Shown: positions 22,980-62,512 of the stretch, one piece after another
How the letters are laid out: each line of letters starts with the position of its first letter
Position numbering within the stretch: the stretch's first letter is position 1
NCBI GenBank assembly: GCA_958009085.1
Contig: OY253671.1
Span: 1-64,000, forward strand
Direction: 5' to 3'
Length of the DNA: 64,000 nt
Source: Protoeuglena noctilucae
Lineage: Eukaryota
Position numbers and translations under genes: made by a program
The notes under the pieces: model-generated
The model's database searches: none
What the model was told of the DNA's origin: nothing
The model's input: only the letters and a program-made list of their open reading frames with translations

Positions 22980-23179
22980 NNNNNNNNNNNNNNNNNNNNN
23001 NNNNNNNNNNNNNNNNNNNNNNNNNNNNNNNNNNNNNNNNNNNNNNNNNNNNNNNNNNNNNNNNNNNNNNNNNNNNNNNNNNNNNNNNNNNNNNNNNNNN
23101 NNNNNNNNNNNNNNNNNNNNNNNNNNNNNNNNNNNNNNNNNNNNNNNNNNNNNNNNNNNNNNNNNNNNNNNNNNNNNNN
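22980..23179. other. Scaffold gap (200 N)
   Basis: Run of N. Both flanking genes lack their 3' ends. Confidence 0.99.
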
Positions 23180-27195: not shown

Positions 27196-27622
27196 TATAT
27201 AGGTCATGACGGTCACTCGGCGGTGGCGTGCCTCTTAAACTGCCTCTTCCGCTGAGAGGGTGTTGGTTATGATGGTCACTCGGCCGTGGCTTAGCTTTCA
27301 CTGCGTCTTCCGCTTACGTGCTAGCCATGCCGGACATGACCACCAGCTATGACAGTCACGGGCATGTGCGTGTGTGTGCACTCTTTTCAAAGAGGGGAGG
27401 GGCACGGGAGCACGGGAGCACACGGCAGGTGGCGTTAACAAGTCAGGGCGATGAGCCAGCGACACCCAACCAGCAAGAGCGAGTGCGCGCGTGCTGAGAG
27501 CAAGGGGTGGCTATCGTGGGTAGTCTGCAAGTCTGCATTCCACCCCCCTGTTTCATGTCCCCCTCCCTAGACTGCCAGTCTCTTTAAAGGAGAGCCAATC
27601 AGGGTGCCAGTCAGGGTGCCAG

Positions 27623-30600
27623 TCAGGGTGCCAGTCTGCCCCTCCACACCGCCTTGAGGTCCTCGCTGGCCTCGATGGACGGCTCCTCGTCCTCATCCTG
27701 ACCCAGCACCTTGAAGTACAACTGAGAGTTCCTGCGACAATTGTGACGGGGGGTGGGGGTGCTCACGGGGGGTAGCGATGTGGGAATGGGGGGGTGCAGT
27801 GGGTTTGTGATGTGGGTTTGATGAGACGGCGAAGGCGCGGGTGCGGTGATGCTGAGAGTGGGAATGGCTGTGGTACAGTCGCATGAGAGAGGGCAGAGAT
27901 GCCAGACATTAGCGCCCCATTGCCAACTGGAATGCGATGTCGCAGTGCCGCAGCGCCATGGCAACGCAAGACGGCAACGACTGCTCTCATCGCACATATA
28001 CACACACACATACGCAATCCCACCCCATTCCCTCCCTCGCCTCCCCGGGTTGATCTTGGCCCTCCGGGGCTCCGGCAGTTTGTTAGATAAATGCGCGATG
28101 CCCGCGTGCTGGAAGCCCCTCTGCATGAACCAGTCGGCGGTGCGTGTCGTGAGCAGCACCAGCTCCCGTATGCCCAGGTCCCTGGCTTGCTGTTCCAGGT
28201 ACTCCAGCAATGCGTCCCCGCGGCCGCCGCCCCTGGGGGAGTTTAGGGGAAGGGAGGGAGGTGAGTGCATTTGGATTGCATGGCATTGCATGGGACTGCC
28301 ATGGGTGGGGGGAAAGACCATAGGGAGGTGAGTGCACTGCGTTGCGATGCATGTGCATGGGACTGCGAGGGGTGGGGTTGGGGTGCCAGGCACACGCACG
28401 TGCAGATGGGGAGCATCCGAACAGCGCAGGATGGAGGGTGACTGAGTGACGCATGACGCATGCCTGGAGAGCTGAGTGCGCTCCCACACATTCACAAACC
28501 CCCTTCTCTCCCATTCACCTGTACTTGGAGTCCACCAGTCTGCCCCCATCTACTCTCACACACATACAATGCTCTCACATACATACATACACACCATGCC
28601 CTCACCTGTACTTGGAGTCCACCACGAACGCCCCCACCTCCGCCATTCCCGAGGGCCCCCCGTCGCTGTCAGGCAGCGGCACCAGAAACGCGCACGCCAG
28701 CACGCGCGCGTCCCTCTCAATCACGTAGTAAAAGGCCAAATCACGCGATATGTCGTCCAGCGATCTGGGTGCGAGGATTCCCGCTTCTACCAGAGGGTGC
28801 AGCAGAGCGTCGATGGATTGCAAATCGTCCGGTCGCGCATGCCGGCAACCCTCGTAAAAGTCCCGGGAGACCATCGTGCCCACGCCGTCGCGGGTGTAGA
28901 GCTCTAACAGAAGGCCGCCCCTGCGAGGGGTGTGTGGGTGGGGGTTATATGAGCGGAGGGAGGGAGTGAGGGGGGTGGGGATGAGCAGGGGTGTCAAGTT
29001 AAGAGGGACGCGAGTGTGAGGGTGAGGGTGTCAAGCAAACACGAACATCATAAACATTCCTTTCTCGTAGGAACGTCCCTCGATGCACACGTGTACATGT
29101 GCTTGCCATGACCATTCCACCACCACCCCGTACCCCCTCGCCTGTCGCGAATGTCCACCAGGCTATCTGTGCATGTGTGTACATGTCTGTGCCCTCTCCA
29201 CCACCACCCCATACCCCACCCCCCCTCGCCTGTCGCGTATGTCCACCAGGTGCGCCCGCTTGACCCCCGCCCTCAGCGCCGCCACCGCGCACGACAGCTC
29301 CCACGGCGCCCCCTCCACGAACCAACTGTCCAGATCCACAGGGACGTCCGCGGGCGACGCGGGGAGGGGCTTGCCGGGGCGGGAGGGGCCGCGTGCCAGG
29401 ATGCGGTTGAAGGCGAACTGGCGGATGAGGTCCTCGGCGTCCTGGAGCCTGCGACGGGTGAATGGGTGGGGAGGGGTAAGTGAAAGTAGGGTAAGCAAGA
29501 GATGTGAAAACAAGGGATAGAGTGAGCACGGGATGGGCAAGTATGAGGTCCTCGGCGTCCTGGAGCCTGCGATGGGTAAGGGAGGAGTGGGGTGGGGTGG
29601 GGTTGGAAGTGTGAGGGACGAGCTGAGGGAGGTGTTAAGTGAGGCAACATTGTGAAGGCTTCCTGTCGCCTCGCCTGAGCAATCTGGGAAGTTCTTATCA
29701 GCAGCTCATGCATCTAATCACCTGAGCCACTTGGGCAGCTCCAGCTGCTCGATGTCGTTGAGGGTGTGGAAGATGATCTTGTCAGCCTGGAGCGCGGTGG
29801 CCGTGGCAGTGGCCACCTCGTAGATGTTGCAGTTGAGGACGTGGCCACCCGCGGACGCACCCAGATTGCTGACCAGCACGATATGGTCTCTCTCCAACAG
29901 CGCTTGTATGTCATCGGCCGCCACCAAGCGCACCTCGCCCGTCTGACCGAAGTCCACCCCGTCCACCACCCCCCTCCTTTTGGCCACCACGAAGTTGCCA
30001 GACGAGACGCTCGCGACGGGGCGGAAGTGGAACGCCTGCATGGTGCGCTGGTGGCGCCGCACCATCGCCACGCTCGGTCCCTTGGACAGTCGCGCCTCCG
30101 CCAGCGCCCGCACCACCCCCGCCGCCTCCATCGATGCGACCAGCGACGCGGGGCACGTGATGCGGTATTCCCCGTGGAAGCTGGACGACACGCCTCGGGC
30201 AGCCAGGCGCTGCTGCAGCTGCGGGAAGCACCCCAGCACCAGCACCACCCGCACGCGCAGGGAGTGCAGGAGGGAGAGGTTGTCGAGCACCTGTTCCACG
30301 ATCGCAGGATCCTCGAAGGCCTCGCCTGTATAATAAGGGGGTTTGAGGGGGAGGGTGAGGGTGTGTGTGTCATGAAGGGGACACATGGTACAGGCAAACA
30401 GGAGGTGGAGAGGGGCAGAGAGGGACAGGGGGGGCACAGGGCATGCTGCGGGTGTGTCAGAACCACATGTTGCTAGCTACCCATGCAGTACATACAACTC
30501 TTATGCACTACAACATCCCAACACATGCCCCACCCCACCCCCTCCCCCTCACCCGGCACGACCACCACGAACGTCTTGCCCCGGTGGCCGGCGATGTAGG

Positions 30601-33041: not shown

Positions 33042-40025
<6,984 letters not shown>

Positions 40026-41806: not shown

Positions 41807-44800
41807 TGGCATTCTCCGCTCTCTCCGCTCCCGCAGCGTCGCTCCCGGCTCCATCTACGGCATTCCCCGCGAGGAGTGGCTCGCTCTGCAGACTCCCGCT
41901 CGGTACCTGGGCAACGAGCACGGCTCCATCCACAAGTCCTTCGACGACGCAAGGGTGCGCTTCGTCATGACCTACCCGGGTGAGATGTGCGGGTGGGTGG
42001 GTGTGGGTAGCAGTGTGGATGTGGGTAGTGTGGGTGTGGGTGTCTCTCTGTGCGTATCGCCTTTCAGCCCTGTCGGCCCCATCTCAGTTCACCCCCACCC
42101 CTGCCCCTCATCTAGTCACCCCCGCCTGTCCGCAGAGATCTACGAGGTCGGCGCATCAAATCTGGGCCACGTCCTCCTCTACACGTGCCTCAACCGCGAG
42201 GAGGGGGTCATGTGCGACAGGGCGTACTTCCCGGGACCCGACATGGGTACGTGGGGGTGGGGAAATGGGTGCATTCATGGCATTATCTAACCCTGTAGCC
42301 TGTCGCGGCCTTCCCACCCCCTTCTGCACTCTGCCAACCGCACCCCTCAACCCCTCCCTCCGTCTCGGACTCCCTCACTCTCTCACCTCTTCCCCTGCAG
42401 TGGAGATGCTCGCTCGCCACGACCGCCCCCCGCTCATCACCATCACCCCCACTCTCCCTCTCACCTGCAGTGGAGATGCTCGCTCGCCATGACCGCCCCC
42501 TCTTTGCCGTCGAGTCCCGCCGCCCCCTCCGCGACTTCGATGCTTTGGGATTCTCTCTGGCATACGAGCTGGGGGGCACGAATGTGCTGGAGATGCTGAG
42601 GCTGTCGGGTGAGATAGTGATGATTAAGGATGGATGGTAACAGAGTGTTTGATGATGATAACAGCAGCCATCCAGTCTTCTATCCCTTTCTATTCAAATT
42701 TAAACCCATCCATGCCTATCTCACTATCTCTCTCTCCCCCTCTCATATCCCAGGCATCCCCATCACGCGCCAGGAGCGCATGGGCAGCGACAGGGCGGGG
42801 GCGTGGGAGGTGGGGGGTGGGTCGTGGCCGCTCGTCTTCGCGGGGGGGCCCACCGCCACCTCCAACCCAGAGCCGTTCAGGTGACAGAGGGAGGAATGTG
42901 AATAGTCACTGCGATGGGGTAGCAGCAATGCTGTGAATGATAAATATGAGAGGGGGAGGTGACGCGTCGCCCTCTGCACCCACGCCATGCACCCTCACAC
43001 CGCATCCCACCCCATCTGAGTCCAACATCTCCATATATACAACTCCATTTCACTCTCTTCACCTCTACCCCACCCCCCAACCCCCAGTGATTTCTTCGAC
43101 TTTTTCTGCATCGGCGACGGGGAGGACGCCCTGCCCGAGGTGTCCCGGTGCCTGGCGCGGTGCAGGGATTCGAATTTGAATCGGGAAGAGACCCTTTTCA
43201 AATTGGCCACGGAGGTGCGGGGGGTGTACGTGCCCGCTTTCTACGAGGGCATCCCCGGGTACGGGGGGGCGGTGTTTCCTACGCGCGAGGGCGTGCCAGA
43301 ACGCGTCGTCAGGAGGGTGGCCACGCCGGACCCATTCATGCAGGCGAGGGGGGATGGGGATGTGCGTGTGTGGGTGTGTGTGTGTGGGTGGGTGTGGGTG
43401 GGGTGTAACTCTGGCTTATTATCACTGCAGGCAAACGGACAGTCCCTAGTTGTAGTCACCACAAAGTGACTCAGTTAGACGACTAATACTGACACTTCTC
43501 AGTAACTGATCGTTTTCAATATGCTACTATTATGTGACTTACTTGCCCTCCCCCTCCCCCCCCAGGTGGGCCTGGTCCCGTTCGTGAGCACGGTGCATGA
43601 CCGCATGAGCATCGAGATTCGCAGGGGGTGCACGCGGGGGTGCAGGTTCTGGTGAGAGTGAAATGGGATGCGGATGCAGCGAGGGAGACGCTCGATAGTC
43701 TAATCATAGTAGCAGTAGTTGTTTGTTAATGCTTGGTCAATGCTGCCAGCAAGGATGCTCACTCTCCTTTCATCCACACAGTCTAGTAGTCACCATTACT
43801 TTCCTAACCAGCCACAACTTCTCTCCTCACCAATTACAACCCCTCTTCCCCCACCCACCCACAGCCAGCCCGGCATGCTCACGCGCCCCGCCCGTGACGT
43901 CGACCCCGACGATGTGGTGACTGCGGTGGAGGAGGGCATCCGTAAAACGGGGTACAACGAGTTCTCGCTTCTGTCGCTGTCGTGCTCCGACTACCTCTCC
44001 CTGCCATCCGTGGGCATTCAGATCAAGGTGAGGGTGGGAGTGGTGGGGTGGCAGTGGGGGTGGCAGTGGGGGTGGCAGCGAGAGTGCGATTGATACTAGT
44101 AATAGCCACACCCACACCCCCACCCACACCCACACTCCCCCCCCTTCCCCATCCCAGAATCGCCTGAAGGACGCCAACGTGGGCCTGTCGTTGCCCAGTC
44201 AGCGCGTGGATCGCTTCGACGAGACAATTTCGAATATGCTCACGACGGGGGGTGGCAAGAAGGGGGGACTCACCTTTGCGCCGGAAGCGGGGACGCAGCG
44301 GCTGAGGGACATCATCAACAAGGGGCTCACCAACGAGGAGCTGCTGAGGTGAGACGATGTTAGATAATGATAGTAATAATGGTAATAATATAGATTAGAC
44401 ATCATCAACAAGGGGCTGACCAACGAGGAGCCGCTGAGGTGATGAGGGGATGATGTGTTGCATATATATTGCTCTGTATATATGATGTGATCTGTATATA
44501 AGGTGTCATAACGTCTTCTATTCTGTTTTCTCTGCAGGGGCGTGCGCACGGCGTGGGACCAGGGGTGGCGGCAGGTGAGGGGCGGGGATGTGATGGGATG
44601 GCGGCTGCTATCGCATGTTATGGCCAGCCTCTGTTTTCATATCACTAACACTAAGCATCCAACCCCCCCTCTTCCCCCCCGGCATGTCAAGCTCTACTTC
44701 ATGATCGGCCTCCCCGGTGAAACGGACGCGGATGTGCTGGGCATCGCAGAGACGGTCGCGTGGCTGCAGAGGGAGTGCAGGAGGGGGAGGCAGCATCTTG

Positions 44801-47800
44801 CGGTGTCCATCACCGTCAGCAACTTCACGCCCAAGCCGCACACGCCCTTCCAGTGGCACAGGCGAGGGGTGTAAGGGGGGTGGTGGGTAGTGCTTGTGGC
44901 AGTGGGGGTAATGGTGGTGATATCGGTAATGATTCATCTATCTATCTAAGATCACCCACCCCTTCCAATCTCCCCCTCCAGTGTCTCCACCGAGGAGTTC
45001 CGCCGCAAGCAGTCCCTCCTCCGCGACGCTTTAAAAGACCTCCCCTTCGTCAAATGCAACATGACGCCCGTGGAGATATCAGCGATGGAGGATTTCGTGG
45101 GCAGGGCAGACAGGAGCGTGGGTAAAGTGATGCGGAGGGCGTGGGAGATGGGGGCGACCAATGACGGGTGGTGGATGGGGCACGAGGAGAGCTTCAAGTG
45201 CTGGTCGAGGGCGATTGAGGAGGAGGGACTCACGTGGAAATACCGACAGGTGAATATAACGTATTATGTTACGTTATATTATATTATATTATATTATATT
45301 ATATTATATTATATTATATTATATTATATTATATTATATTATATTATATTATGTTATATTATATTATATTATATTATATTCGTTCCATTCACGCAGGTGG
45401 ACGAGGGGGAGTGGAACGTGATGGACAAGCTGGGGGACGCGCGTTACCGCAAGCAGGGGGGGGGTGGCAAGGGGCGCATCGACCGGTGAGGGGGGTGGTG
45501 GTGGTGGTGGTGTGTAGCATGGATGAGTGTGGATGGATGGGGGAGTAATGGAAGCACGCACTTGCCAACACGCACACATGCATGAGCCGTTCCATCTCTC
45601 ATCCCTCCCTTCACCCCACCCCCACTGCCACCCTCAACACCACCCCCACTGCCACCCTCAACACCACTTAACCTCCCCCCCCCCCCCCCCAGCGGCGCCC
45701 TTGCCGATGCTCGCCTGGACGCCCCGCTCCCCTGGGACCACATAGACACGGGAATATCCAAGAAATGGCTCAAGACGGATCTGCAGAAGGCACTGGAGGC
45801 AGCCACGGTGCCCGACTGCTCGCATTCTGGCATCTGCACCGAGTGCGGGGTGTGCGACGAGGAGGGGGGGGAGGGTGAGGGGATGGGGTGGGATGGGTTG
45901 CAATCGTGTGATGTGTCAGTTGTGGTTGTCAATAGCACTGCTCACATTATTAAAACTAAACCCCCCTCACATCCAACACCCCTTCCCCATCCCCCCCCAA
46001 TAATCTTCGGCCACAATGTCGTCTTCCCCCATCACTAATTACCATCAAATAAATAACACTATTAAGATAAATAATGCTATTTAAATAATTAACACTCACC
46101 CTCTCCCTCTCCCCATCCCCCCAGCCGTCTTTGGCCACAACGTCGTCTTCCCCCCTCCCCCCGTCCCCGCTTTTGAGGGCCACTCCCGCCCCGACACCAC
46201 CCCGGCCCAGCGCATCCGAATGACGTTCTCCAAATCGGGAGATATGGTGTTTATCGGTCACTTGGACACTTTATCTGCGATCGACCGAGCGTTGCGGAGG
46301 GCGGGGCTGCCGGTGGCGATGGACGGATCGCCCTATAGCCCCCGCCCGCGCATAACGGTGGGCCAGCCGCTGAGTTTGGGATATACGGGGGGCGGGGAGG
46401 TGATGGAGGTGGTGTTGACGAGGGCGGTGGGGGCGGAAGAGGTGGCGAGGGCGCTGCAGGCGCAACTGCCGGCGGGCATGCAGGTGAGGGGTGGGGTTGA
46501 TATATGGGGGTGTTGTTATAAATGGGGGTTGATAAATGGGGGGTTGATAAATGGGGGGTTGATATAGGCTGATATCGGCTGGGTGTTGGTTGTGTGGGGA
46601 TTTGTGGTGATGGGTGCAGTGCTGGGGATTGGGAGATGAGAGAGACGGTGACGATCGGTGCGCCGCAGGTTGTATGCCCTAGTACTACTGTGTATAGTAC
46701 ATGCGCTATGTTAAGCACTGCTTTATCTATTCATTAATTACATGTGTCTCCGTCCCCATCTCTCCTCAGATCCTTTCCTCCTGCGAGATTCCCATTCGCA
46801 AACTGGACGGCAGTTTGGTGGAGTCTCTTCCCGTGTTGATGGATGCGGTGGAGTATTACGTGCTTATACAGGACGACGGCGATGGGGGTCACGCTCTGAC
46901 CATCGAGGGGGCGGTGGAGAGGGTGAGGGAGAGGGGGTGGGGTGGGATGGGTTGAAGTTGGTTCGTAGATTACAAGCATTATATACCCACTATTTCTACG
47001 AGCACATCAATCAGTAGCACGATCGATGCATGCATCATCCATGCACATTGATTTTCTTATTATGAGTTACTTACTTTCTTATTATTAGTTACTACTCACC
47101 CTATTCAAACACCGTCCCCCCCCACCCAGGTCCGCTCCGCCCCCTCCCTCCGCGTCCCCCACCGCACCAAAGCCGGCAAGCGCAAGACGCGCGACTTGCG
47201 GGAGGGATTGATTGAGATCGAGATATGCCCGAAGGGGAGAGAGGGGCCGATGGCGGCGTTCGCGGGGCCGCTGTTGAAGAGAGTAACGGAGGAGGGGCGG
47301 CCATGGGCGGTGGTGCGGGCGAAGGGGAGGGTGGAGAAGGGGCAGGTGAATGGGTGTGTTGTGTTTGATAATAGTGACTGTTACTATTGTGGGTGACAGT
47401 GTGGGTGTTTGTGGTTGTTAGTGAGGGAGGGAGAGAGGGGGTGCGGGCGAAGGGGAGGGTGGAGAAGGGGCAGGCGAGCGGGTGTGGATGGGTGGGTGTG
47501 GATGTGGGGGTGTGGGTGTGGGGGTGTGGGTGTATATAGTGTGTTCATACGTTTCTGTTTGCATGCGTGTGTACATAACCTATTCCACCCCTCCCTCTCC
47601 CCCCCCGTACGCAGATCCGCCTGCGTGCGGATGACGTGCGCCGCATGATGCAGGAGGTTTCTGACATTGCAGAGAACAGGCCCAGGGATGCATCGGCAGA
47701 AGAAGAGGGGAGGCGATTTGAAGTTGTGCATGTGCACCGGGCAGGGTTTGACATGAGGGAGCCGGCCAAGGTGAGGGGATGCAGGAAGTGGTATATATAT

Positions 47801-48275
47801 ACAGTGGAGTTGATATATATGTATATAATGGAGTGAGAGGGGGTGCACGTGCACAGGGCGGGTTTCGACATGAGGTAGCCGGCCAAGGTGAGGGGGGGGG
47901 TGCGGGCGGGGGATGGGTCTGGGGGTGTGTGTGGGTGGTGGAGTGAGAGGGGGGGTTGCAGTACATGGAATTATCGGTAATGCTGGTAACACAGCTTATA
48001 CTGGTTCATTCAGTCTATTTTATCTCGTCCTTCACTCCCCCAGCCCCGTGTGGACCACCTGCGCCTGCGTCAGTTGGTGCAGTGTGTCACATCTCATCTC
48101 ATATCATCCCATCTTATATCTAAATCACTTATATCCAATCCACATCTCTGTCCTTCCCCCCCAGCCCCGCGTGGACCAGCTGCGCCTGCGTCAGTTGGTG
48201 CGGTGGGAGGGGTTCGCGGGGGCGGCCAGGGCGTTCAACAAGGGGCCGTGGGCAGGGCCACTTGAGACGAGGTGA
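41807..48275 (+). CDS. TIGR03960-family (B12-binding-type) radical SAM protein fused to a TIGR03936/DUF2344 domain, cyanobacterial type; about 16 introns
   Basis: PARYLGNEHG...TYPEIYEVGASNLGH, FAGGPTATSNPEPF, EIRRGCTRGCRFC (CxxxCxxC), LTFAPEAGTQRLRDIINKG, KLYFMIGLPGETDAD, FTPKPHTPFQW; C-terminal FSKSGDMVFIGHLD...RALRRAGLPV. The N-terminal exon is not resolved. Confidence 0.9.
45274..45380. repeat. (ATATT)n pentanucleotide microsatellite, intronic
   Basis: About 20 tandem atatt units fill most of an intron of the radical SAM gene. Confidence 0.95.
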
Positions 48276-48639
48276 ATGGGCGTGATATGTGATAACATAT
48301 TTGATTGCACGTGGGGTTGCTTGAGAGCAGGCAATGATGGGTGGTGGCATGGGGCTGGTACGCACCACCCATCAACGTCCCATTCCCTTTGCTGACATCG
48401 CAGGGACCCGGTGGCAGACGGCGTCGTCCACGTGTGACGATGATGGTGGTTATCATGATGGTTATGGACGAGATGGGGAGAAGGGGAGAAGCGGTGCCAT
48501 GCAATGCGACACAGTCGACAGGTGAAGTGCGATGCCTCACTTAGCCAGTGCCTGTGGCGAGAGCGTTGATGGCGATGTCACGATGCTTATCGGCCATTCA
48601 AATCAGAGACGAGCTCCCTATAGATATAGCAGATAACAT

Positions 48640-49413
48640 TCAGAAGTCCCCCGGCCGCCACCCCGGCCCCGGGTCCCGGCCAAAGTGCATGCGCTTGACA
48701 AGCTGCCGGTGACGGCGGTACCTGCGGGGCACGAAAGCGAACGTGATTGGCGGTGAATAAGCGTCGCATTAGCACTGTTTGACGGGATTCGAACGCGAAA
48801 CCAGGCCGCTCACAGCTCGCCCACGTCGCGCGTCGGCGCCACCGCCGTGTCGCCGGGCCCGCGCGGCTGGGGGTCCGCCTGCGCGCGACGAGAGAGCTTG
48901 CAATGAAAGCTATCGATATTTGGAGAGCCAATCGACTTGCTTTGCGCGGACACCGGCCTCGCCTGCACCGCCACTCCGTCGCGCATCACGAAGGTCCCGC
49001 CGCGCGCGGCGCCGGCGAAGCCCCGCGGGACACGCATTCGAAGGAACGCAATATTGCCCTCAAGATCCCTGCAGAATGATAGCCGCGTGGATCGCGTGAT
49101 GGAGACGGAAATCGCACGATGAGAAACCAATCATCCCGACCGCATCGCGGGGCTCACCGTAGCAGATCCTGCAGCTGCATGTCCGAAGAAACGTCGCGAT
49201 TGGCGCGGAAGCTGCGGTCGGATGGCGATTGAGATGTCAGCAAGCCGCGAACAAGGCGGCGCATGGGTGTGGGAGTGCGCACGCTCACCCCTCGCGCGCG
49301 CGAGACAAAGCGCCCGGTCTCTCCGATGCGGGGAGTCCGCGAATGAGACGCAGGAGCTCCCGGTAGGCGCCGAGCACCACGGCCCGGCTCGATGTCGCGC
49401 CCGGCGTGCCCAT
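48640..49413 (-). CDS. LYR-motif (Complex1_LYR) family protein
   Basis: VLGAYRELLRLIRGLP...AREGFRANR; later exons IAFLRMRVPR...FVMRDG and HRQLVKRMHFG; TGA at 48640. Confidence 0.72.
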
Positions 49414-49776
49414 CACCCCCGCCCAGCGAACAGCAAGCAGCGGCGCCCTTACATATCCGTGCCTGGCGCTCGGATGGCCAAAGCGAGGCACTGAGAGCAC
49501 GTGAGCGCGGAGAATGAAGCGAAATAGCGCATGAGCGAACTTGCACCGAGCGTCAGAAGGGCACAGGACAGCGAGAGGGCGCTTTGCTACGCTCTTCCGT
49601 CGCGCGCTGGGCTGCGGCTTGCATATATCTAGCCGTCTTATCCATCGCTTAGCCAAGAAATCAGCTCCTCTCGCACCTGGCCCCGCCAGCAGCCCGCCGC
49701 TTCCTGTCGGAAGCCGCGGCGCCCCCGGCGGGGACCCTACACGCCTTCTGAGGCAACCGAGGGACTCGTCTTTAGC

Positions 49777-52700
49777 ATGACAAAAGACAAACAGCCCGAT
49801 GGCCCGTCCGGGGCCCCTCCGCGGGTCAAGCAGAACCTGCGCGTGAAGGCTTCGCTCGAGGTCTTTTTCACGGGAGGTGTGTCACCGGAAGCCCGCCGCA
49901 AGCTGCGATGCGATCCTTCGCATCTATAAGGACCTTTACAGCCACTCCGGCACGCCTGCTCGGGCACCGGGGCGTCCCGGTTCGCTGCGGCACGAAGCCC
50001 GCCGATCCCGCCGCCGTCGCGCGCATCTCCCGCGCCGCGCCCCTCCTTCCGCAGGTTCCGTGGCCTTTTCTCGTACCGGCAAGCACCTGGCGTGCGCCTG
50101 CGGGGACGAGGTGAAGGTGCTGGACGCGAACACGGGCGCCGTGGCCGCCACGCTGCCCGGCGACGGGGAGGCCGTCACAGCGATCGCCTTCGCAGGTGAA
50201 CGATCGATATTTATTATCAAACACCAGCGCGACCGGTATCTCGCGCCCCCGAGCTTCGTAAACCTCGTTTCGCTCCTTGGTGACTCGCGCAGTGGACGGT
50301 CAGTCGGTGTTTGCGGCTTCCCGCTCCCTCACCAACCGCCGCTTCGCCCTCCCCGACGGCCGCGTGACGCGGTCGTGGCGCGGGCACTCTGCCCCGGTGC
50401 TGGACATGGCCTTGGATGCGTCCGGGTCTCTGCTGGCCACCGCATCGGCCGACGGCAGCGCGAGGGTGAGAGGCAGCGCCTCCAGGCCACCTGCGGGGGT
50501 AGTGATGATGAGTAAGGGAAGAGTGGGTGTGTATTGGTATGGTGGGCGTGACTCAGGGATGGGTGTTGTGGTGTGATGAGCAACAAGCTTCCCGTCACGC
50601 ACGCTTCCCTCACCACCACGCCTGCTCTCACCACCACCCTCACCCCCTCACCCCTTCACATCCAGGTGTGGGACGTGGATGCCGGCCACTGCACCCACGC
50701 CTTCCGCGGCCACAATGGCCTGGTGCTGCGGGCGTGCTTCCACCCGGACGCATCGCAGCCACGGTTGGCCACGTGCGGGGATGACGGGACGGTGAGGGAG
50801 AATATGCGATGTTGCTCATGCCTGTGAAGCTGTGTCACTCTCTCATCTATCTCGTTCTCTCTCTATATAGTTTATAGTTTTCCTCAACCCACCCCCACCC
50901 ACCGCTCCTTTACCCACCCAGTGTGCCCCCCCATGATGCCCATTATGCCCAATCCATTCCCACCCTCCCATTACCCCCTCAGGTGCGTCTCTGGGACCTG
51001 GTCCGCCGGTCGTGCTCCCACGTGATGAGAGACCACACCGCAGCAGTCACGGGAATGTGCTTTGCTGATGGCGGGAGGCTGCTGTTCACTTCGGGCAGGG
51101 ACAGGCGAGAGACGGGGGGAGAATAGCTGCAATTGGAGTGGACAGTTGGTAGTTGATAGTTGCGATGTGACTGGCACGGCAGGGAGTGGAGGCATGCAGG
51201 TTTGTTGCCATCAGTTATAAAATAAACAAGTATCAATTTCAAAAAAGAAACTTTCCTTTGCTCCTCACCCCTCTCATTGCAGCGTGGTCCACTGCTATTT
51301 GACGGACGAGGGTCGATTGGTGGGTGCCATCCCCACCTATGAGGCGATTGAGGGGGTGGCGGTGCTTCATAAAGATAGTCGATTCCCGGGATCGAAAGCA
51401 ACGGCACCGACGGAGCGGAAGGGGGCATTGAGGGTGGTGACGGTGGGGGAGAGGGGGCAGGTGAGTGTTGAGTGGGGTGTGAGTGGGCGAGAGCGTACGC
51501 TGTTGCGTGAGTGTGCGTCGTGATTGCTCTGACACCAACCACTGCCCTCTATCCGAATCGTACCTATAAACATAATTACCCTTATCTCTCCACTCCTTTT
51601 GTATCTCCCAGGTCAAGGTGTGGGACCACCTTTCAGGCCAGTGCATGTATGAACAGCCGCCCCCCATCACGACTGGCGCATCGGCCACTTACGCCGATCT
51701 GCTGCCAGTCCCCCACGATCCCGACTGTGTTCTGGCAATCACGTCTGACGAGAGGATGCTAATCGTGGGGCCGACTGAGGGGGCGGGGGAGGGGAGGGAG
51801 GCGTGGGCGGATGAGAGGGTGAGTTGGGGGGGTGGGATATGTGTATGGGTGGTGGCAGTGACAGTGTCAGTGACAATAAGCTGTTATTGATTGTTCCCAT
51901 CCGTTCGTGCTACTTTCATTGACAGTTATGCTTTGAGCTGTGAGTGGGGTTGGATGGCGACGGGTGTTGCGGGTGCTGCGAGGGTGGCATGGGTGACGCT
52001 CGTGATTACCTGAGAACGTGATAACTCATTCCTTTCTTCTCATCTCGCCCACCCGCAGAGTGGCCTGTCTGCCTGCGTGCGCCGTGAGTGGGTGGGCAAT
52101 GTGGGGGAGGTGACAGACGTGCGATTGGTGGCGGTGGGGGGGGGGGAGGAGCCGACGCATGTGACAGTAGCAACCAGCGCAGAGACGGGTGAGGGGGGGT
52201 GTTGAATGGGGGTGGCAGTGAGTGGGGTTGATGGTGGTAGTGGCAGTGATAGTGGCAGTGGCGACAAGCGCAGAGACGGGTAAGGGGGTGGGGTTGAATG
52301 GGGGTGGCGGCAACTGAGGTGGGAGTGAGAGTGCCAATGGAGGTGGTCTTGAGGGTGGGAGTGGGGGTGGTGATGAATGCGGCAGCGAGGGTGGCAGTGA
52401 GGTGACACCCCCCACTCACCCACACCCACCCACACCCACTCTCCTCCCCCCCTCAGTGCGCCTCCATCGATTGGCGACATTGGAAGCGGATGTCTCTTTC
52501 CGCGGTCACACGGATGCGGTGTTGGGATTGGACGTGCATAAGCGGAGGGTGGGGGGGGCGTGGCGGGCGGCGGTGGCGACGGGGGGGAAGGATGCGGGAG
52601 TGCGGGTGTGGGATGCGGAGACGGGGGCGTGTTTGGTGAGTGATGGTGGGAGTAATAGTGCGAGGGATAGTGATTGTTATTGACAGGGGTGGTTGCAAGG

Positions 52701-55530
52701 ACTCGGGGGTGTGGGTGCAGTTGCCAACCCGTGTCACTCCCCTTTTCCCCCTTTCGCACCATTTCATCCTCTCCCATCCCTCTCATCTTATCCACTCTCA
52801 TTCCTCTCTCTCTCAATCCGCAGGCCATCGGCGAGGGCCACCTCAGCGCCGTGTCTCACCAACACTGATCTCTCCATCAATTTCCATTTCTCTCATCTTA
52901 TCCACTTCAATCCCTCTCTCATCCACTCTTATCCCTCTCAGGCCATCGGCGAGGGCCACCTCAGCGCCGTCTCCGCCGTCGCCTTCTCCCCGACTGGCGG
53001 TTTACTGGCATCCGTGGGGTCAGACAAGCTGCTCAAGATGTGGGACACGAAGGCGGTGCTCAAGGCGTGGGGGTGAGTTGGAAGAATCGAGTTAGGGTGA
53101 ATTGACTGATATTTGAAATGTGGGACACGGGGGCAGTGCTCAAGGCGTGGGGGTGAGTTGTGAGAATGGGGGGGGAAGGGTTAGAGTGGGTGGATGTGCG
53201 ATGGGTGACCGGTTGCGGTCATCATTCTGCAAAGATGACTAGAGGCCGTCTTTTGTACTCGCTATATCAACCAATAATAAATGTTACATCGCTCCCCTCT
53301 CTCTCCTCCCCGCAGCAAGGTGGTGAAGGGCGGGGGTGCGTCGCAGCTGCCACTGATGGACCCCAAGCCCCTCACAGCACGATCCGGGGTGGCAGCGCAT
53401 GACAGGGACGTGAATTGCGTGGCGATTGGGCCGACGGGGGTAGTGGTGGCGACGGGGGGGCAGGACAAGCTGTGCAAGATATGGGACGCGGAGACGCTCA
53501 CGCTCACGCTCACGCTGCGGTGAGGGTTAGAGTGAGAGAGTGATTGTGATTGTGATTAGGAGTGTGACTGACTGTGCAAGATGTGGGACGCGGAGACACT
53601 GACATTGACGCTCACGCTGCGGTGAGGGAGGGTGGGGTTGGGGTTGGTGGGTGGCAGGGGTTGGGGTGATGACAGAGGTTGAGCAGTGCGAACCTACTCT
53701 TACCCACACCCACGCCCTCTCCCTTACTCTCACCCGTCACTCTCCCTTCCTCTCCCCCACTCTCCCTCACCCCCCTTCAGCGGCCACAAGCGCGGCGTGT
53801 GGGGCGTGTGCTTCTCCCCCATAGACCGCGTCGTGGCAACCTCAAGCGGAGACCGCACCGTCAGGCTGTGGTCACTCAGAGATGGGGCGTGCCTCAAAAC
53901 ACTCGAGGGACACAACGGCAGCGTGATGAGGAGCGTGTTCGTGTCGCAGGCGAGGGTGGCAGAGGGGGTGGAGGTAGTGGGGTGGTGGTGGCAGTGGGGG
54001 TGGCAGTGGGGGTAGGATTGTTGGTATAAGCCGCCCCCACCCCCACCCACCCAACCCACGTCTACTCCCTCGCCCATACCACCCCCAGGGCACCCAGCTC
54101 CTCACCTGCAGTGCGGACGGCCTGTTGAAGCTCTGGTCATCCGCGACCGGCGAATGCACGGCCACTTTCGATCGCCATTCGGATCGAATCTGGGCGGTGG
54201 ATGCGGGGGGTGCGGGGGACGGGGTGGCGGTGACGGGGGGGGCGGATGCGGCAGTGCGGGTGTGGGAGGACTGCACGGCAGAGGACGACGCGGAGAAGAC
54301 CAGGTGAGAGTTAATTAGATAGGGACGATAAGGTGGTGGTGGTAGTGGTGGTGGTGGTCGTGGTCGTGGTGGTAGTGGTGGTGTTGTGTGGGAGGATTGT
54401 ACGGCGGAGGATGATGCAGAGAAGAGCAGGCGAGGAGATGGATAGTGTTGGTGATGATAATGGTGGTGGTGGTGGTGGTGGTGGTGGGTGTGTTAATATC
54501 ATGTGTAACATACATATGATTTTTCTATAAGCTAGAAATACCATTTTCCACACTCACTCCCCCCCAGGCAAGAGGCGGCGCTCGTCGCCAAAGAGCAGGC
54601 GCTTGGCAACGCGATGCGAGGCGGCCATTACGCCAAAGCAGCCAGGCTCGCGTTGGAGTTGGGGCACCCCGGTCGCATGCGGGAGGTGGTGGGGGAGGTG
54701 CTGGGGACGGAGGGGGGTGATAAAGCGCTGGAGGGGCTGTGCGGGGCGATGGGGGCCGAGCATGTACGGGTGGCGATGGGGTGGGCCAGGGAGTGGAACA
54801 CGTCGCATAAACACTGCCACGTGGCGCAGGTGAGACTTTAGTTTGAAGGGGTCTGTTTATGTAATGTGCAATGTATTATCTTCCATAAACACCCACCCAC
54901 CCTGAGCTCCTCACCTCTCGCTCACCATCTCCCCTCACTCACACACACACACACACACACACTCCGTCGCACTCCCTCATTCTTCACTAACACCCACGCT
55001 CCTCCCTTATCCCCCAGGCCCTCCTCCGCGCCATCCTGGCCACCCATCCCCCCTACTCCCTCCAATCGATGCCCGGGGCACGCGACATCATCGAGGGACT
55101 ATTGGCCTATTCAAAACGACACATGGCACGAATGGATCGTGCTGTGAGGTCCACGTACGTCCTGGACTACGTGCTCGCCAGGATGGCCGTGCTGCAGCCG
55201 GAGGGGAAAGGGGTGCTTGAAACGGGGGCAGAGGGTGGGGGTGGGGAGGAAGTGGGGGAGGGGGGGGATGCGGGAGAGGGGGAGGGAGTGAGGAAGCAGC
55301 GTGGCGGTGGGGAGAGTGGTGGGGAGGGAGGTGGGGAGAGTGGGCATAAGAAGAGGCGTGGGGAGGGAGAGGGGAGGGAGGCTGCGGTGGTTGCGAAGGG
55401 GAAGAAGAGGCGGGGGCAGGGGGAGGGGGAGAAGGTGGGAAAGAAGAGGGTTAAGGGAAGTGCGGGTGTGGAGGGGGATGGAGAGAGGGCGGGTGCGATG
55501 AGGAAGGGGAAGCGGATGGCAAGCGCGTGA
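49777..55530 (+). CDS. UTP13: U3 snoRNA-associated protein 13 / transducin beta-like 3 (WD40 repeats + Utp13 C-domain)
   Basis: LEVFFTGG start; many WD40 repeats (GHSAPV..., GHNGLV..., AHDRDVNCVA, GHKRGVWGVCFSPIDRVVATSSGDRTVRLW); C-terminal WNTSHKHCHVAQ...LLAYSKRHMARMDRAVRSTYVLDY. Confidence 0.93.
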
Positions 55531-55702
55531 GAAATGAGTACTAGAGGGCGGCTGTGCTTGTTGCCGGGCCGGCAGCGCAGCGCTGCGGCGCGCAGTGACA
55601 TGATAAATGTCGCGTTTGCTCGCGTTTGCTTGCATCATAGCCAGATGTTAAGGTTGAAAGATGTTTACGAGGCATTCACCGGGCCGCTACGAGGCCCTTA
55701 GA

Positions 55703-56287
55703 TCAGATGCTGAGGCCGAAGACGGTGAGGACGATAAACATGTTTTTATGCTCCAATTTGAATGTCTTAGACCCGTCCATCTGGTTGTCCCACCAGCACG
55801 ACACCCCCGTGCACATCCCTGCGTTGGGTGGAAGAGCGCGATCGACGATCGATGAGAAATCGAATCCAAAACATTTGCGCATGTTTACAATATACGATTC
55901 CCCGCGCAGGCAATGCGCAGCATCGCTGCAGCGCCGCGTCAATCCACGCCAGCGCTCGCCCGCTCACCGGCCCCCGTCTTTTGCATGATGACGCACGTGG
56001 TGACGTACTTGAAGGGCTTTTGCAACGCCGCGAGACGCTTGATGACGTTTTCGAGAATCTCCGACGTCCACTGCCCCACCTGCGCGCGCAGAGACGCCGG
56101 GGAGTGAGCGACAGTGTCCGCGCCTGCGCAGCCCTCCCGCCGCGCGAGATTGCGGGATGTCGCCGACGCGCGCCCGGCTCCTCACTCTTTCCGGCACGTA
56201 CGGCTCGTTGACGGGAAGCACCTCGTCCACCGCGGTCTTGATGATCGTCTGGACCTCGTCCGCGACGAATTCCACGTCGCTCGTCAT
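55703..56287 (-). CDS. DYNLT1: Dynein light chain Tctex-type 1
   Basis: FVADEVQTIIK..VGQWTSEILENVIKRLAALQKPFKYVTTCVIMQKTGAGMCTGVSCWWDNQMDG...VLTVFGLSI; three exons. Confidence 0.92.
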
Positions 56288-57210
56288 CGCGACCAATGCC
56301 CCGCGCGCACCAGCGTGCGCTCCTTTCACCTAGCAGTGCGCGCAGACCAGCGGAAACAGGCGACGACGACGCCGCGGGACGCGCGCGACCGCCACGTTGC
56401 GCCGAGCGATAGGCAGGCCGGGGAGCGAGCGCTGCGGTCGGTCCTTCTGCGCGGTCGGAAGCTTTGTGCTCGAATGAGACGTGGCATGCACTGCACGAGG
56501 CCAAGCACCCATGCGAACGCGAACACAGCGCAGCATGTGCCTGCATCTGAAAGTGGCCCTGGGCCCGTCGCAAGCAGAGGAAACGCAGCTTCGAGGAGTG
56601 TGCACGAACCGGCTTACCTTTAGTGCTCCTTCCTCAGCTCCTGAATCGGCGTAGCAGTCGCGGCGCGACACACAGCGCGAAGTTCGTGCAAAGTACGGTT
56701 GCCTGACTCTTTGGGGACGAAGTGCAGCAGTCTTGCGATCGCATGCGCTCTACACGACCCATCTCTACTCGCCGGGCGCGCTGCCCGGGCTGACATGGAG
56801 AGCTGCAGGTGGCGTGCCAGCGACACGTCCTGCATGTGCGCAAGAAGCGGCGGTGCTGCAAGGTGCCAACGCTCAAACCAGAATGCTTACTTCCCAGTTT
56901 AGCTCGTGCTCGCCGCGAGCCCCGAGACACGAGGCGCTTCCTGCCTGCCAGCCGTGCAGCATTGCGTGAACGAGACGCGCGCGTTCGCCTGCGTCTCTTC
57001 CATCTGCTGGTTTATTACAATCGTGTCTTGCCCCATCGCGCCGACACAACCCTCAGTCGCGCCTCGTGCGCGCCGCATTGCCGCCCTTGCCTAGCTCGGC
57101 GTGTGTGAGCAGAGCGAAGCGCGCGCCCCCGCCCATGACAAGAGTCGGCGAGTGACCGCGAAGTGTAACTTGCGGTGGTCGTCGGTTCCTCTAAAAGCCC
57201 CGGGGTCACC

Positions 57211-60200
57211 ATGGCGATTGCGGAGGACATCCGGCAGGGCGTCCTCTGCGTGGGCCCGCGATGCCCGCCGGCGTACGAAAAGCGCAGCCGCGTGCGTCTG
57301 ACGCGGTTCAAGAACCACGAGAGGTGCGGTGCGGGAAGCTGGGGCCGCCTCGTGAGTCACCAGAGCGGGCGTTGGCATCGGCATGTCGCGGCCTACCCGG
57401 GGCCCTTGCGCGACCCGCGGGGGGTGGCGGAGGTTGGCAGGCCGGAATCGGGGATAAATTTGCGTATCTGTGCACACTCGCATTGCCATCGGTGGCCCTC
57501 TCTGCCCCGCCGCCCCCGATACTCGCCCGTGGCGATGCGCCCCTTCCGCGCCCGTCCCCGCACTCCCCTGCGCACCTCCCGCCGCGCTGACGTCCACCCA
57601 ATATACTTTATTTACAGGATAGGCGGCAGGAGTCCCTGGTCGGTGTTCCGCGCGCTGGACACGAGCACGGGTGGCATCGTGATAATCAAGGTGTTGGATT
57701 TGGGCGAGGCAAAGCCGGAGGTCCGCGAGGACGTCCTAAAAGGAGTCCATGTGCACGCGAGACTTGGTGAGAATCGGAGCCGGACCCGACGCGATGGGCG
57801 TGAGACTGCTGGGGTGCTGCATGGTGGGGTGTGGTCCGCAACCCCACACATTGCCTTATCGACTGTGCCCCGCCGACCACCCCCGCATGCCCCCACATTG
57901 CCCATCACCTGTGCCCCGCACACCTCATTCCCGCATTTTCCCATCACACCTGTGCCCCGCAGACCACCCCCACATCGCCCCACCTTGCCCCCATCACCTA
58001 TCTGCCCCGCAGACCACCCCTACATCGCCCCTCTGTGGCTGGCGTTCCGTGAGGGTGACCTGCTGGTCCTGCTGATGCCCGAGGCCCGGGGGTCGCTGCG
58101 GAAGCTCTTTGGGAACGTGTGCCGGGACGAGATGTCAGTCGCGAAGGTGAGAGAATGGGAGGGGTGGATGTTGGTAGTGGTGATAGTGAGAGAGATGTCG
58201 GTGGCCAAGGTGAGAGAATGGAGAGAGAGGGGTGTTGGTAGTGGTGATAGTGAGGATGGTCAAGAGAGATGTTGGTGGCGAAGGTGAGAGATGGGGTTGT
58301 TGTTGGTGATGGTGAGGAGAGAGATGTCGGTGGCGAAGGTGAGGCAGCAGTGAGAGAGAGATGTCCGCATCCACCCACCACCCCACACCTGTCTTCCCCC
58401 ACTCAATCACTCCCACCATTCACCTCTCCTCGCCCTGCCCAACTCAGCCGCACACACCACCCCACACAATCACACCCACCACTCCACCCCACCCCCCTTA
58501 ACCCCCCCAGAAGGTCATCCTCCCCCTCCTCTCCGCGCTCGGCCACATGCACCACTCGGGCCTGGCACACCACGACGTGGCGTTGGAGAACGTCCTCGTC
58601 AGTTTCTCGGGCCGCGTGATGCTGGCGGACCTACAGAGCGCGCGCGCCATGCCGCCCTCGTACAACGTCGACGAGGAGATCGAGCCTGGGTGGCAGAAGG
58701 TCACGTGGTCGAGTCGGGACCTGGTCTCCCAGGCGGAAAAGAAAAAGAAGGCGGAGGAGGAGCTGCCGGACAACGCGAGGTTCATGCGGGGGCGGTTCGG
58801 GTGGGCGGGGGACGTGTGGGGGATCGGGCTGCTGACGTGGGAGCTCATCAGCGCGGGTGAGGGGGGGGGGGGGGTGGATGTGGGGTGGGGTGGATGGTGT
58901 TGATGACCTGGGAGCTCATCAGCGCAGGCGAGGGTGGGGTGGATGTGGGGTGGGGGTTGGAGAGTGGGGTTGGGGTGGATGAGTGGGTGGGAGTGGGTGT
59001 CGTTAAAGTGGGGTGGTGAATGAGGGTGTCTGTCATCTCCTGAAGACTGACTAATCAGCTCAGCAATCGCGTGAATGTGAAATGTACCGCACCTGACTTA
59101 TCTACGCCTGCCCCACCCCCCCTTGCAGCGGTGCTGGGCGGCGTGATGCGTCTGCGTGGCTACGAGGGTTCAATCGACGACATCGTGCTCCGTCACGACT
59201 TCGTGTCTCTGATGCCCGAGGCCCAGGACTTCATCCGCAAGTGCCTGCGCACGCGGCCCATGCAGAGGCCCACGGGTGAGATGGACTGACTGGCTGACTG
59301 ACTGACTGTCCTTCAATTACAGCCACAGTAGAGACCCATGGGTGAGACACGGACTGACTGACTGACTGACTGACTGACTGACTGCATGGGACACGTCCGT
59401 GCGTGCATATGTCAGGGGTGAATGAGACACGATGCCCCTTACCAGCCCCCATCTCTCTCCATCCACCCCATTCATACCCCCCCGTTGTCGAGCAGCTCAC
59501 CACCACCCCCATGCCATATCACATCTAGTCTACTAGCTACCATTTACGCATCTCTCTCTCCCCCCCCCCCAACCGCAGTCGAGCAGCTCTACCACCACCC
59601 CTTCGTCACCCAGGCCGCCAGTCTGCTGTCGTGGATCCGCCAGAAACCACGGGCGCGCCAGGCGGCTGCAGCCAGGCACGGCCACGGCCGCACCCACGGG
59701 CCATTCCTGCCCATGGTCAACAGGCGAGTGCAGGCTGGGTGATTGGAAATGACCAAAAGTCATTAATTAACATGGATATGTGTATATCATCACAGACACG
59801 GTAGCATTGATGGTCTACAATAGCGATAGCAAAGTCGACGCACCACCCACTCTCACTCCCACCCCCTCTCTCCCACGCAGTGCGCTGTCCGCCGCACCCC
59901 CCGCGCTGCCCGAGTGGGCCAGGCCGGACGCCGACCGTCGCCGGTCCGCCAGCCTCGGCCCAGGGCCCCGCAGCAGCAACCCGGGGAACGCCACCGCCAC
60001 CCCCAACGTCCCCGCCGCATTGCGCGCCCCCACCGCCACCCCACCCACCGCCACTGCCACCTCCCGCGCCCCCACCGCCACCTCCGGGGCGCCCTTCCGC
60101 GCACCCCCGCCCCCCCCCCCGCCGCTCGCCTTCCCCCCCGGTGCCTCCCTCGGGGTCCGCCGCAGCGTGGCATCGCTGCCAGCCATCCTGTCAGAAACGT

Positions 60201-60508
60201 CGTTCGGCACCCTGGCGTCGATGGCCGGGGTGGGGTCAGCCGTGGCTGCCAAGAAGCGTCCGCTGATGCGGCCCATCGTTCATCCTGACGAGGCAGTCGA
60301 TAATGGGGAGAAGGAGGGCGGGAGGCATGGGGCGGGTGCAGGGCAGGCGGGGGTGGCAGTGCGGGGGCAGATGGGGATGCAGGCGGGAGCGCCAGTGGGA
60401 GTGCAGAGTGGAGCGCATAGGGTAGCAGAGGGCGGTTTGCCGGGTCTCATGGACCCACAGGCGCGGCTGCCGGGGATGGGCAGGCGGGGAGGGCGTGACG
60501 TGACGTGA
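57211..60508 (+). CDS. Divergent Ser/Thr protein kinase-like protein (Aurora-like scaffold), probable pseudokinase
   Basis: IVIIKV, HPYIAPLW, HHDVALENVL, LADLQSA, DVWGIGLLTWEL, AQDFIRKCL..RPMQRPT..LYHHPF; low-complexity C-terminal tail. Confidence 0.8.
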
Positions 60509-60731
60509 GCGGGTGGGATAAGTGATGTGTGATGTGTGACGGTGCTTGGTGAGGGCTGGCGATGTGTGCGACGGTCGATAACAACGAATGAATACATACA
60601 GTTTAATACTAACGTATGTACTTGACAGCATAGCACGGATATGCATGGATTGACGCTCGCAACGGTCGATAGCCCCATCAGTGCAACTCAAATGCACGAT
60701 TTACGAAGCACATTACATAAATTCCCTCTGT

Positions 60732-62512
60732 TCACATCAGCCGCAGCATCTCCACCGCGTATCTCCCCTTGGCCGTCTCAGTCACCGCCCGCACCTCCAC
60801 GCGCCCCTTCCCCGTGCACGATATGACGTCCCCCGCATGCACTGTCGCGCTGGGCTTAGACACCACGCGCCAGTTGACCTTGACGTCGCCCGACGAGACC
60901 AGGTCGGCCATCTGGGTGTGGTGAGAGGAGGGGGGTTGATGTTGGGGCAGTGAGGTTTGCGATTATGGGGAGCAATTATGGGAGTGACAAACACCAGGTC
61001 GGCCATCTGAATGGGGAGAGAGGAGGGGAGGGTGTGTGTGTGACAGTGAAGCTGTTATGAAGCCATCTGATTGGGGATGTCCATTCTCAAGTCCCCAATT
61101 ACAGAGCATTGGATTTGCTCAACACATTATCACCACCTGCCATGCCCCTTCACCCTCATCCCCCCTCACCTTCCCCCGGCTGACCCCGAACCCGGCCGAC
61201 GCCACCGCGTCGACCCTCAGCGACGCCTCCACGCTGCGCACCTCCCTGGCACGCGTCTCTGGCACGATGATGTCAGAAAACGGCACCTCTGTCACGGCCA
61301 CCGGCACGGTGCGTACGGAGGTGAGCGAAGCCGTCACGTGCATCGCCACCTCGCGTTTGATGAGCAAGTGGCATCCTTTCTCGCCGTTCACAATCACGTC
61401 CCCCACGCACCCCCTCTCGATGCCCGTCGCCAGAATGGCACCTAAAAAGTCGCGGTGGGTGGCGGGGTCGAAGAGGAAGTTGCCGTCCACCTGAAGGGTG
61501 GGAGAGAGGGGGGGTGGAGGGCGAGATGTGAGGTGTGAGGGTGGGGGGGTGCTGAAGTGATGTGGTGCAGTGACTGTAATCCACCTGCACAGCAGTGATG
61601 CAATGTGATGGGGAGCAGGGGCGCAGGTGGGCAGTAACCAAACGTACACACCGCCACTACCCCACTCATGACAACACATCGCAAGTGTCCACAAGTAAGC
61701 TAAGCTAATTGTAGTAAGTAAACCTTTGCATCCAATCGCAACTACCATCACCTGCAGCGCCGCGATGCCCTCCGCAGCCGCCCCCTCCTCTCCCAGCGCC
61801 CCCACCACCTCGGGATGCCCCACCACCAACGCACGACGCTCGGCACCCGCGTACCCGCCCACCGCCACGCCAGAGGCAGATGCGAGGCGGGAGAGGGCAT
61901 CTAGCGCTGATTGTTGCACGGGAGGATAGAAGAAATCCGTTGTCGCTGCGGGCGGGGTGCGGGAGAGGGTGGGCGAAGGGAAGCGTGGGTTGGGGATGCC
62001 AATGCACATTAAACGGGCTGCTCCGTGTATCTGGCGGGTCCTCGCCTGTGCTCCATCGGTCGGCTGCTGATTCTGCCTTTTCCAGCACGCGCTCGACCAT
62101 CGCCCTCGTCTGCGCGAACGAGGAGAGTCGAGAAACTCGCGCCGAGTTGCAACCCGGTCCCTCGCGTGGCACGCGCAGGGCGTCCGGCGCTGGTCTGCGC
62201 GTCCAGAGCATATCACCTCTTGATCCAAATGCTGCACGAAGCTGGCGTATCGCTGGGCGCTGCGGGGAGGGGCCGCGCGGCATCGATGAAGGTGCAGACC
62301 CACACGCAGCGCCGCGAGCGAGCGGCCGATGTCGATTGCGCGCAAGTAAAGCACAAGATACTTTGGGTATCAAAGTCCTCGGCATACCTGGCGGCGACGT
62401 TACGCTGCCGGCAACGTAGCTGCTCGGCTGCGGGGCTGCGCGTCGGTCTCCGGCTGCCCAGGCCGGCCCATCGAGCCCGCCGGGCGAGGAGGCCGAGAGG
62501 TGCGCGATGCAT
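60732..62512 (-). CDS. YlmH/Sll1252-family photosystem II S4-domain RNA-binding protein
   Basis: TDFFYPP, GGYAGAERR, GNFLFDPATHRDFLGAILATGIER..VGDVIV, EASLRVDAVASAGFGVSRGK, GDVKVNW...GKGRVEV; TGA at 60732. Confidence 0.92.

Follow-up and report, generated by a model that had tools for sequence, protein, structure and literature searches.

Why should the last codons of an exon, together with the splice donor behind them, reappear inside the adjoining intron with differences that are nearly all silent? The question is raised by a locus in Protoeuglena noctilucae, on the forward strand of contig OY253671.1 (assembly GCA_958009085.1), whose first 64,000 nucleotides were analysed as a whole and are called the window in the following: in a gene encoding a radical SAM / DUF2344 fusion, the end of an exon is echoed at position 47843, within the next intron, and an earlier annotation made from the letters only (the sequence-only reading) had drawn attention to the silent nature of the changes. 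This copy is probably the relic of a tandem duplication of about 117 bp across the exon-intron junction. Junction-spanning duplications are common in the window, and the copy at 47843 is not special among them.

A repeat search of the window aligned 47726-47778 with 47843-47895 on the plus strand as a direct repeat of 53 nt at a spacing of 117, sharing 47 of the 53 bases (89%), and self-BLAST recovered the same pair (88.7% over 53 nt, E 1.4e-11). Both the letters and the positions that the sequence-only reading had given for exon end and copy agree exactly with the window. Within the 45 exon-like bases, 39 are identical and the six differences include no insertions or deletions (indels); compared codon by codon (exon/copy), five are silent, as had been claimed, namely CAT/CAC, GCA/GCG, GGG/GGT, TTT/TTC and the first-position exchange CGG/AGG, and the sixth, GAG/TAG, places a stop at 47876-47878 of the copy. 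Together with a second in-frame stop upstream of the copy (TGA, 47834-47836, in the spacer), this bears out the earlier statement that the copy is non-coding at present. The donor GTGAGGGG (8 nt) follows the exon end (47771) and the copy (47888) in identical form; the repeat, the identical donor and the skipping of the intron by RNA contigs uphold the view that an exon end and its donor are copied within an intron. The spacer between both copies (47779-47842, 64 nt, 36% GC) is similar to the stretch behind the second one (z 2.9 against other intron pieces), and the ends of the two units share a 15-mer (47829-47843 in the first, 47939-47953 in the second), the middle of the unit being only about half identical and containing indels.

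The copy is real DNA. A short-read contig of 5.3 kb (run X1, record 5) spans 47545-52850 and includes both copies without a single difference or gap, and a contig from an environmental run (X5, record 18) covers 47545-47860, reaching the first 18 nt of the copy with three diagnostic bases. The latter evidence is partial, as none of the listed X5 pieces covers 47861-47905, where the TAG lies, but it is independent DNA evidence, whereas X1 possibly derives from the source strain. No difference from the window was seen in the environmental contigs listed, which come from few runs.

The evidence on splicing comes from two metatranscriptome runs of one study (contigs X8 record 25 and X11 record 12). 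These RNA contigs cover 47611/47629-47768 and continue from 48402 onward, with exactly 107 letters between the two pieces. In both runs, RNA depth is zero in the bin 47776-48072 and equals the contig depth x 107/297 in the bin 48073-48369. Zero depth together with the exit from the exon at the authentic donor means that the copy is intronic and that it is spliced out, as is a second echo on the acceptor side of this intron (48037-48084; Table 1), which differs from its exon by one silent and two replacement changes. The assembled transcripts thus use the authentic donor and not the pseudo-donor at 47888. Splicing at the pseudo-donor would lengthen the message by 117 nt, which keep the frame but contain the TGA at 47834-47836; splicing at the pseudo-acceptor (48043) would lengthen it by 121 nt, an open stretch (48044-48164) by which the frame would be shifted.

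We infer the following course of events. A tandem duplication of about 117 bp would have yielded a pre-mRNA in which exon end and donor were each present twice in identical form; if the spliceosome stayed on the upstream, authentic donor, the entire second unit would have been removed with the intron, and the duplication would have come without cost, lengthening the intron. Another duplication, of 121 bp, would have had the same effect at the acceptor side. Afterwards the copy could drift and acquire its TAG, microsatellite-like turnover might have scrambled the low-complexity intronic part of the unit, and the real exon would have been free to change at silent sites only. Two separate events are needed because of the nested layout (exon|GT..copy|GT...AG|copy..AG|exon). 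A single large duplication comprising exon end, intron and exon start was considered and rejected, since it would have placed the acceptor-side copy ahead of the donor-side one, and the intron shows the opposite order. The same reasoning may account for where such repeats are seen. A tandem duplication wholly within an exon would damage the protein, and one wholly within a low-complexity intron would soon be beyond recognition; a duplication crossing the boundary would be harmless as long as the outer splice site is used, and its exon-like half would stay recognisable, so that visible repeats would sit at boundaries, the stop codon included.

How ordinary the locus is becomes apparent from the rest of the window. 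About 23 short-range repeat loci were found in it, 21 of them straddling a coding/non-coding boundary, and high-complexity repeats at distances of 30-400 nt amount to 25 segments in comparison to 0 in each of 10 block-shuffled windows; relaxed repeat scans of the window gave no additional high-complexity pair, and Tandem Repeats Finder overlooks most of the echoes. Twenty pairs could be placed with their reading frame, at 13 donors, six acceptors and one stop codon; an acceptor series at 57863 is a further boundary case outside this tally, and the loci at 14967 and 36403 were left out of the boundary assignment. Frames were taken from Pfam and tblastn for the radical SAM / DUF2344 gene and from protein-like translations for three further genes, labelled WD40-like, kinase-like and USP-like putatively, by their motifs. 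The radical SAM / DUF2344 gene contains six of the echoes, which puts one at about 6 of 34 junctions. Besides the copy at 47843, the window has about 20 such copies of exon ends or starts in adjoining introns, in 42394-61030 and in minus-strand genes (28511-29577, 38591-38751), with periods of 55-128 nt. The kinase-like gene contains a four-copy array of an 18-nt exon end plus donor within one intron (58129-58350; units of 63, 74 and 55 nt) and, in the preceding intron, three copies of acceptor and exon start (57853-58031). At 27157-27290 the end of a gene is itself repeated: a 60-nt unit that takes in its last 12 codons, its TGA stop and its 3' flank occurs in 2.2 copies, which suggests an effect of boundaries in general and not one specific to splicing. 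In 12 of 21 pairs the spacer resembles the side expected if a whole unit was duplicated in tandem (z of at least 2.5).

Most intronic pseudo-acceptors retain AG and a C-rich tract (48037-48043, 42394-42400, 52821-52823, 57950-57962; on the minus strand 29567-29577 and 38727-38735), and the only one covered by RNA (48043) is unused. GC stands in place of GT in three intronic pseudo-donors (47474, 54430, 58928), but also in the real donor of one minus-strand intron, the minus-strand donors 29136-29141 and 29224-29229 reading GCGAGG. The idea that the GC pseudo-donors are inactivated sites was dropped, since such donors are frequent in marine algae of high GC content: E. huxleyi has about 60% (PMC4028052), and two pelagophytes have about 14-17% (bioRxiv 10.1101/2024.10.30.620910).

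Do the silent changes at 47843 call for anything more than this? In three of the five, the copy has CpG where the exon has TpG or CpA; the other three of the six differences, the stop among them, are transversions of the type G:C to T:A and lie at codon positions 1, 3 and 1. The sequence-only reading was right in stating that the changes are not simple CpG decay of the copy; what it overlooked is that three of the five silent ones do fit CpG decay of the real exon. Changes in the exon lineage must be silent because the exon works, and the copy lineage is unconstrained; CpG loss in the real exon is accordingly the simplest reading of these three differences, whose direction is presumed in each case. 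When a constrained exon beside a copy assumed to be neutral was simulated under five mutation models, at least five silent changes out of six arose with P = 0.0175-0.0725, which is unremarkable given that this copy was chosen out of about 20 of its kind. Taken alone, 47843-47887 gives no evidence for past coding constraint.

The sum over all pairs is less easily accommodated. The count covers 20 exon/copy pairs (630 nt). Of their 55 differences, 37 are at the third codon position and 18 at the other two; of the 53 that lie in complete codons, 34 are silent and 19 are not. Several results weigh against a simple history of duplication and neutral drift. The simulations (five mutation models, 400 replicates each) expect only 23.5-28.5 third-position (P 0-0.0125) and 20.0-27.0 silent differences (P 0-0.0325). 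A class-matched null expects 25.2-25.7 third-position differences in comparison to the 37 observed (P about 0.001), or 28.6 if CpG loss is treated as directional (P 0.015), and of the CpG losses assigned to copies 9 fall on third positions and 2 on others, in comparison to an expected third-position share of 41% (P 0.008). At 47726/47843, the exon-like part (87% identical, no indels) is far better preserved than the remainder of the unit (about half identical, with indels), which requires either very fast low-complexity turnover or some constraint on the copy. Nine of the 21 pairs lack spacer similarity on the expected side, and contigs are blind to rare isoforms, leaving room for low-level use of the pseudo-donor.

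The likeliest of the alternatives would have the intronic copies under indirect constraint at the protein level: if copy sequence were often converted into the exon, replacement changes in the copy would come under selection, and in a very large population even a weak cost would suffice to remove them, leaving mostly silent differences. It would explain the third-position and silent surplus (37 of 55, P 0.001-0.015) and the uneven preservation of the unit, as well as the most extreme pairs, 54260/54386 (six silent, one replacement), 53470/53572 (four silent, one replacement, with one first-position change within a silent Leu-Leu codon swap) and 58129 (two silent, no replacement). Against it stand copies with stops, not only the TAG at 47876-47878 but also a TGG to TGA change in pair 60898, and radical changes in pairs 46127 and 58823. 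The surplus, moreover, varies with the null, and the substitution classes disagree: CpG transitions, which make up 21 of the 55 differences, are distributed 18:3 in favour of third positions, whereas A-C/G-T transversions show the opposite trend (3 third, 8 other). By our reasoning, simple conversion models predict equal differences per site and hence no silent surplus, and no conversion tract was demonstrated. We therefore regard constraint of this kind as unlikely. We are similarly doubtful of the wider proposition that junction duplications of 55-130 bp are frequent enough to be a main route of intron growth in this genome, with copies kept protein-like, and short of replacement changes, by gene conversion into the exon; if true, the latter would mean purifying selection on sequence which is never translated. 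Periods that are in frame (117, 102, 126, 63) accompany the pairs with the strongest silent bias; third to other differences of 21:6 for these and 16:12 for the remaining pairs (hand count) are not significant, and the idea was dropped. The third-position surplus is modest, depends on the null, comes from a small sample and differs between classes, and it is recorded here as unexplained and not as coding constraint. CpG-to-TpG/CpA transitions have affected 16% of CpG sites, in comparison to 7% elsewhere, a pattern that hints at possible CpG methylation in gene bodies.

A function as a switch is very improbable. In that case 47888 would be a working alternative 5' splice site, the product of which is lost to nonsense-mediated decay, and the copy would serve unproductive splicing; the pseudo-donor does equal the real donor over 8 nt, and an in-frame insert of 117 nt with a stop is the layout of an unproductive isoform. 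Neither RNA run, however, has a contig over 47776-48072, and some 20 other junctions show the same layout with periods that are out of frame and donors that are degraded, so that by-products fit better than switches.

Still less is to be expected of an inserted mobile element, with the spacer as an introner-like insertion and the two copies as its target-site duplication. The order of copy, spacer and copy fits, and spacers are AT-rich in many pairs (22-46% GC), those of exon copies at 44355-44397, 46036-46100, 47779-47842, 48085-48157 and 53082-53117 having 22-37% GC and several being similar to AT microsatellites. But the target-site duplications known to us are far shorter than 53 nt. The spacers of the 21 pairs resemble each other only at background level within the window, the repeat search found no inverted repeat at their ends, and in 12 of the 21 the spacer itself is duplicated, as in a tandem unit. 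Marine algae do have elements of the introner type that duplicate their target (Huff et al. 2016, cited in PMC9481584), and the parallel consists in a short intronic sequence flanked by duplicated host-gene sequence in GC-rich marine algae; here, in contrast, no dispersed family is present in the 64 kb, terminal inverted repeats are absent, and 35-55 nt are duplicated instead of a few bases. An assembly artefact, by which a collapsed or mis-joined haplotype would pass for a copy, has only the general risk of repeat-rich, G-rich DNA in its favour and can be neglected in view of the X1 contig carrying both copies without differences and the X5 contig crossing from the exon into the copy.

The closest precedent for a tandem duplication across the junction is the minisatellite in intron 7 of human F7, a variable number tandem repeat of 37 bp, the first unit of which lies across the exon 7/intron 7 boundary and whose repeated downstream donors are silent (PMC1557585). 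Here as in F7, the repeat has its start in exonic sequence and extends across the junction (the unit 47726-47842 includes the last 45 nt of the exon, and the next unit follows at 47843); the downstream unit brings an identical donor (47771, 47888), which the assembled transcripts leave unused in favour of the most upstream site. Unlike the F7 array, 47726/47843 has two copies at a spacing of 117 nt, which already differ by 13% in the exon-like part, and is not a polymorphic multi-copy array, to which the four-copy array at 58129-58350 is the closer match; here, furthermore, many junctions are affected, acceptors and a stop codon among them, and the evidence consists of sequence and contigs. 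A related model, illustrated by Drosophila cases, is that of Rogers (PMC2891723): an AG|GT proto-splice site within an exon is duplicated in tandem, and an intron is gained. Common to both is that a small tandem duplication provides a second splice site and that splicing conceals the extra copy. In the model, the new intron is exactly one unit long, its start copying the downstream exon and its end the upstream exon; at our locus an existing intron was enlarged, and the copy lies in its interior with a donor of its own. Intron birth by AG|GT duplication was rejected, the intron measuring 394 nt in comparison to units of 117 and 121 nt, and its ends (GTGAGGGGATGC... and ...TCCTTCCCCCCCAG) being unlike the opposite exons. 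No genome-wide account of junction duplications was found in the literature searched, with subscription papers and supplements outside that search.

What stands at 47843 is, then, a duplicate that splicing removes, and most of its silent changes are those to be expected of a constrained exon beside a drifting copy. The 64 kb offer some 20 natural experiments, each with an intact duplicate donor, or an acceptor with AG and pyrimidine tract, 55-130 nt from the real site. These duplicates are ignored wherever RNA contigs cover them, which bears on the choice of splice sites in a GC-rich alga, and introns are seen growing by swallowing duplicated exon ends. If counted genome-wide, pairs of a constrained and a free copy might serve as a gauge of selection at silent sites, as well as a built-in gauge of the mutation spectrum (here with 21 CpG transitions in 55 differences). 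While the single site is ordinary, the abundance of relics and the small silent surplus deserve such a count.

The assignment of the host gene rests on the exon 46127-46486, which matches PF10105 (Pfam, E 2e-27), and on a homologue with the same three Pfam domains, which aligns piecewise from 41886 to 46486. About 18 exons and about 17 introns were read from RNA contigs and homologue alignment, three junctions being shown directly by RNA contigs. Pelagomonas calceolata, considered as a candidate source on account of its TTAGGG telomeres and 63% GC, was set aside, since 0.45 introns per gene are reported for it (PMC9481584). Because the intron 48272-48403 is removed, the gene continues beyond the TGA at 48273-48275, where sequence alone would suggest its end, a suggestion that the RNA contigs contradict. 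Among the metagenome contigs searched for related loci no relative was found by which the changes could be polarised; a protein homologue search gave 34 matches of 33-45% identity with no close relative, those with a source name being bacterial, and a protein atlas returned only generic eukaryotic Na/H exchanger clusters. The features of the locus are collected in Table 1.

Table 1. Features in and around the intron with two echoes in the radical SAM / DUF2344 gene (window positions)
Feature	Position	Strand	Basis
Source exon, 52 codons; last 45 nt (47726-47770) are the source of the copy	47615-47770	+	Open frame, RNA contigs; DUF2344 match on upstream exon
Authentic donor GTGAGGGG, in use	47771-47778	+	RNA contigs exit the exon here
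Spacer, probable intronic remainder of duplication unit 1	47779-47842	+	Sequence, spacer comparison, frame check
Echo, copy of exon end with TAG	47843-47887	+	Repeat search, self-BLAST, codon comparison, DNA contigs
Pseudo-donor GTGAGGGG, use not seen	47888-47895	+	Sequence identity; zero RNA cover
Probable degraded intronic remainder of duplication unit 2	47896-47953	+	Shared 15-mer, alignment, spacer z 2.9
Second echo in the same intron: pseudo-acceptor CCCCCAG and first 41 nt of next exon, period 121	48037-48084	+	Repeat search, self-BLAST
Whole intron, 394 nt	47771-48164	+	Skipped by RNA contigs
Inner stretch between pseudo-donor and pseudo-acceptor, 156 nt	47888-48043	+	Bounded by the two echoes
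Next exon, 107 nt (coordinates inferred)	48165-48271	+	107-letter gap and RNA depth
Further intron	48272-48403	+	RNA contigs
Last coding exon, stop 48523-48525	48404-48525	+	RNA pieces start at 48402 with 2-nt ambiguity; open reading frame 48325-48525

The window itself is the end of a eukaryotic chromosome, with telomeric CCCTAA repeats at 1-238, a GC content of about 63% and a run of 200 N at 22980-23179, and the stretch is also present in marine metagenome and metatranscriptome runs, as well as in runs of a single coded organism. In the short-read contigs, spurious joints and loose ends crowd between the repeat regions 45616-45668 and 53980-54015. Introns of different genes share a G-rich minisatellite of 12 nt (consensus near GTGGGGGTGGCA), which occurs at 37336-37465, 44028-44086, 51852-51875, 52234-52260 and 53982-54013.

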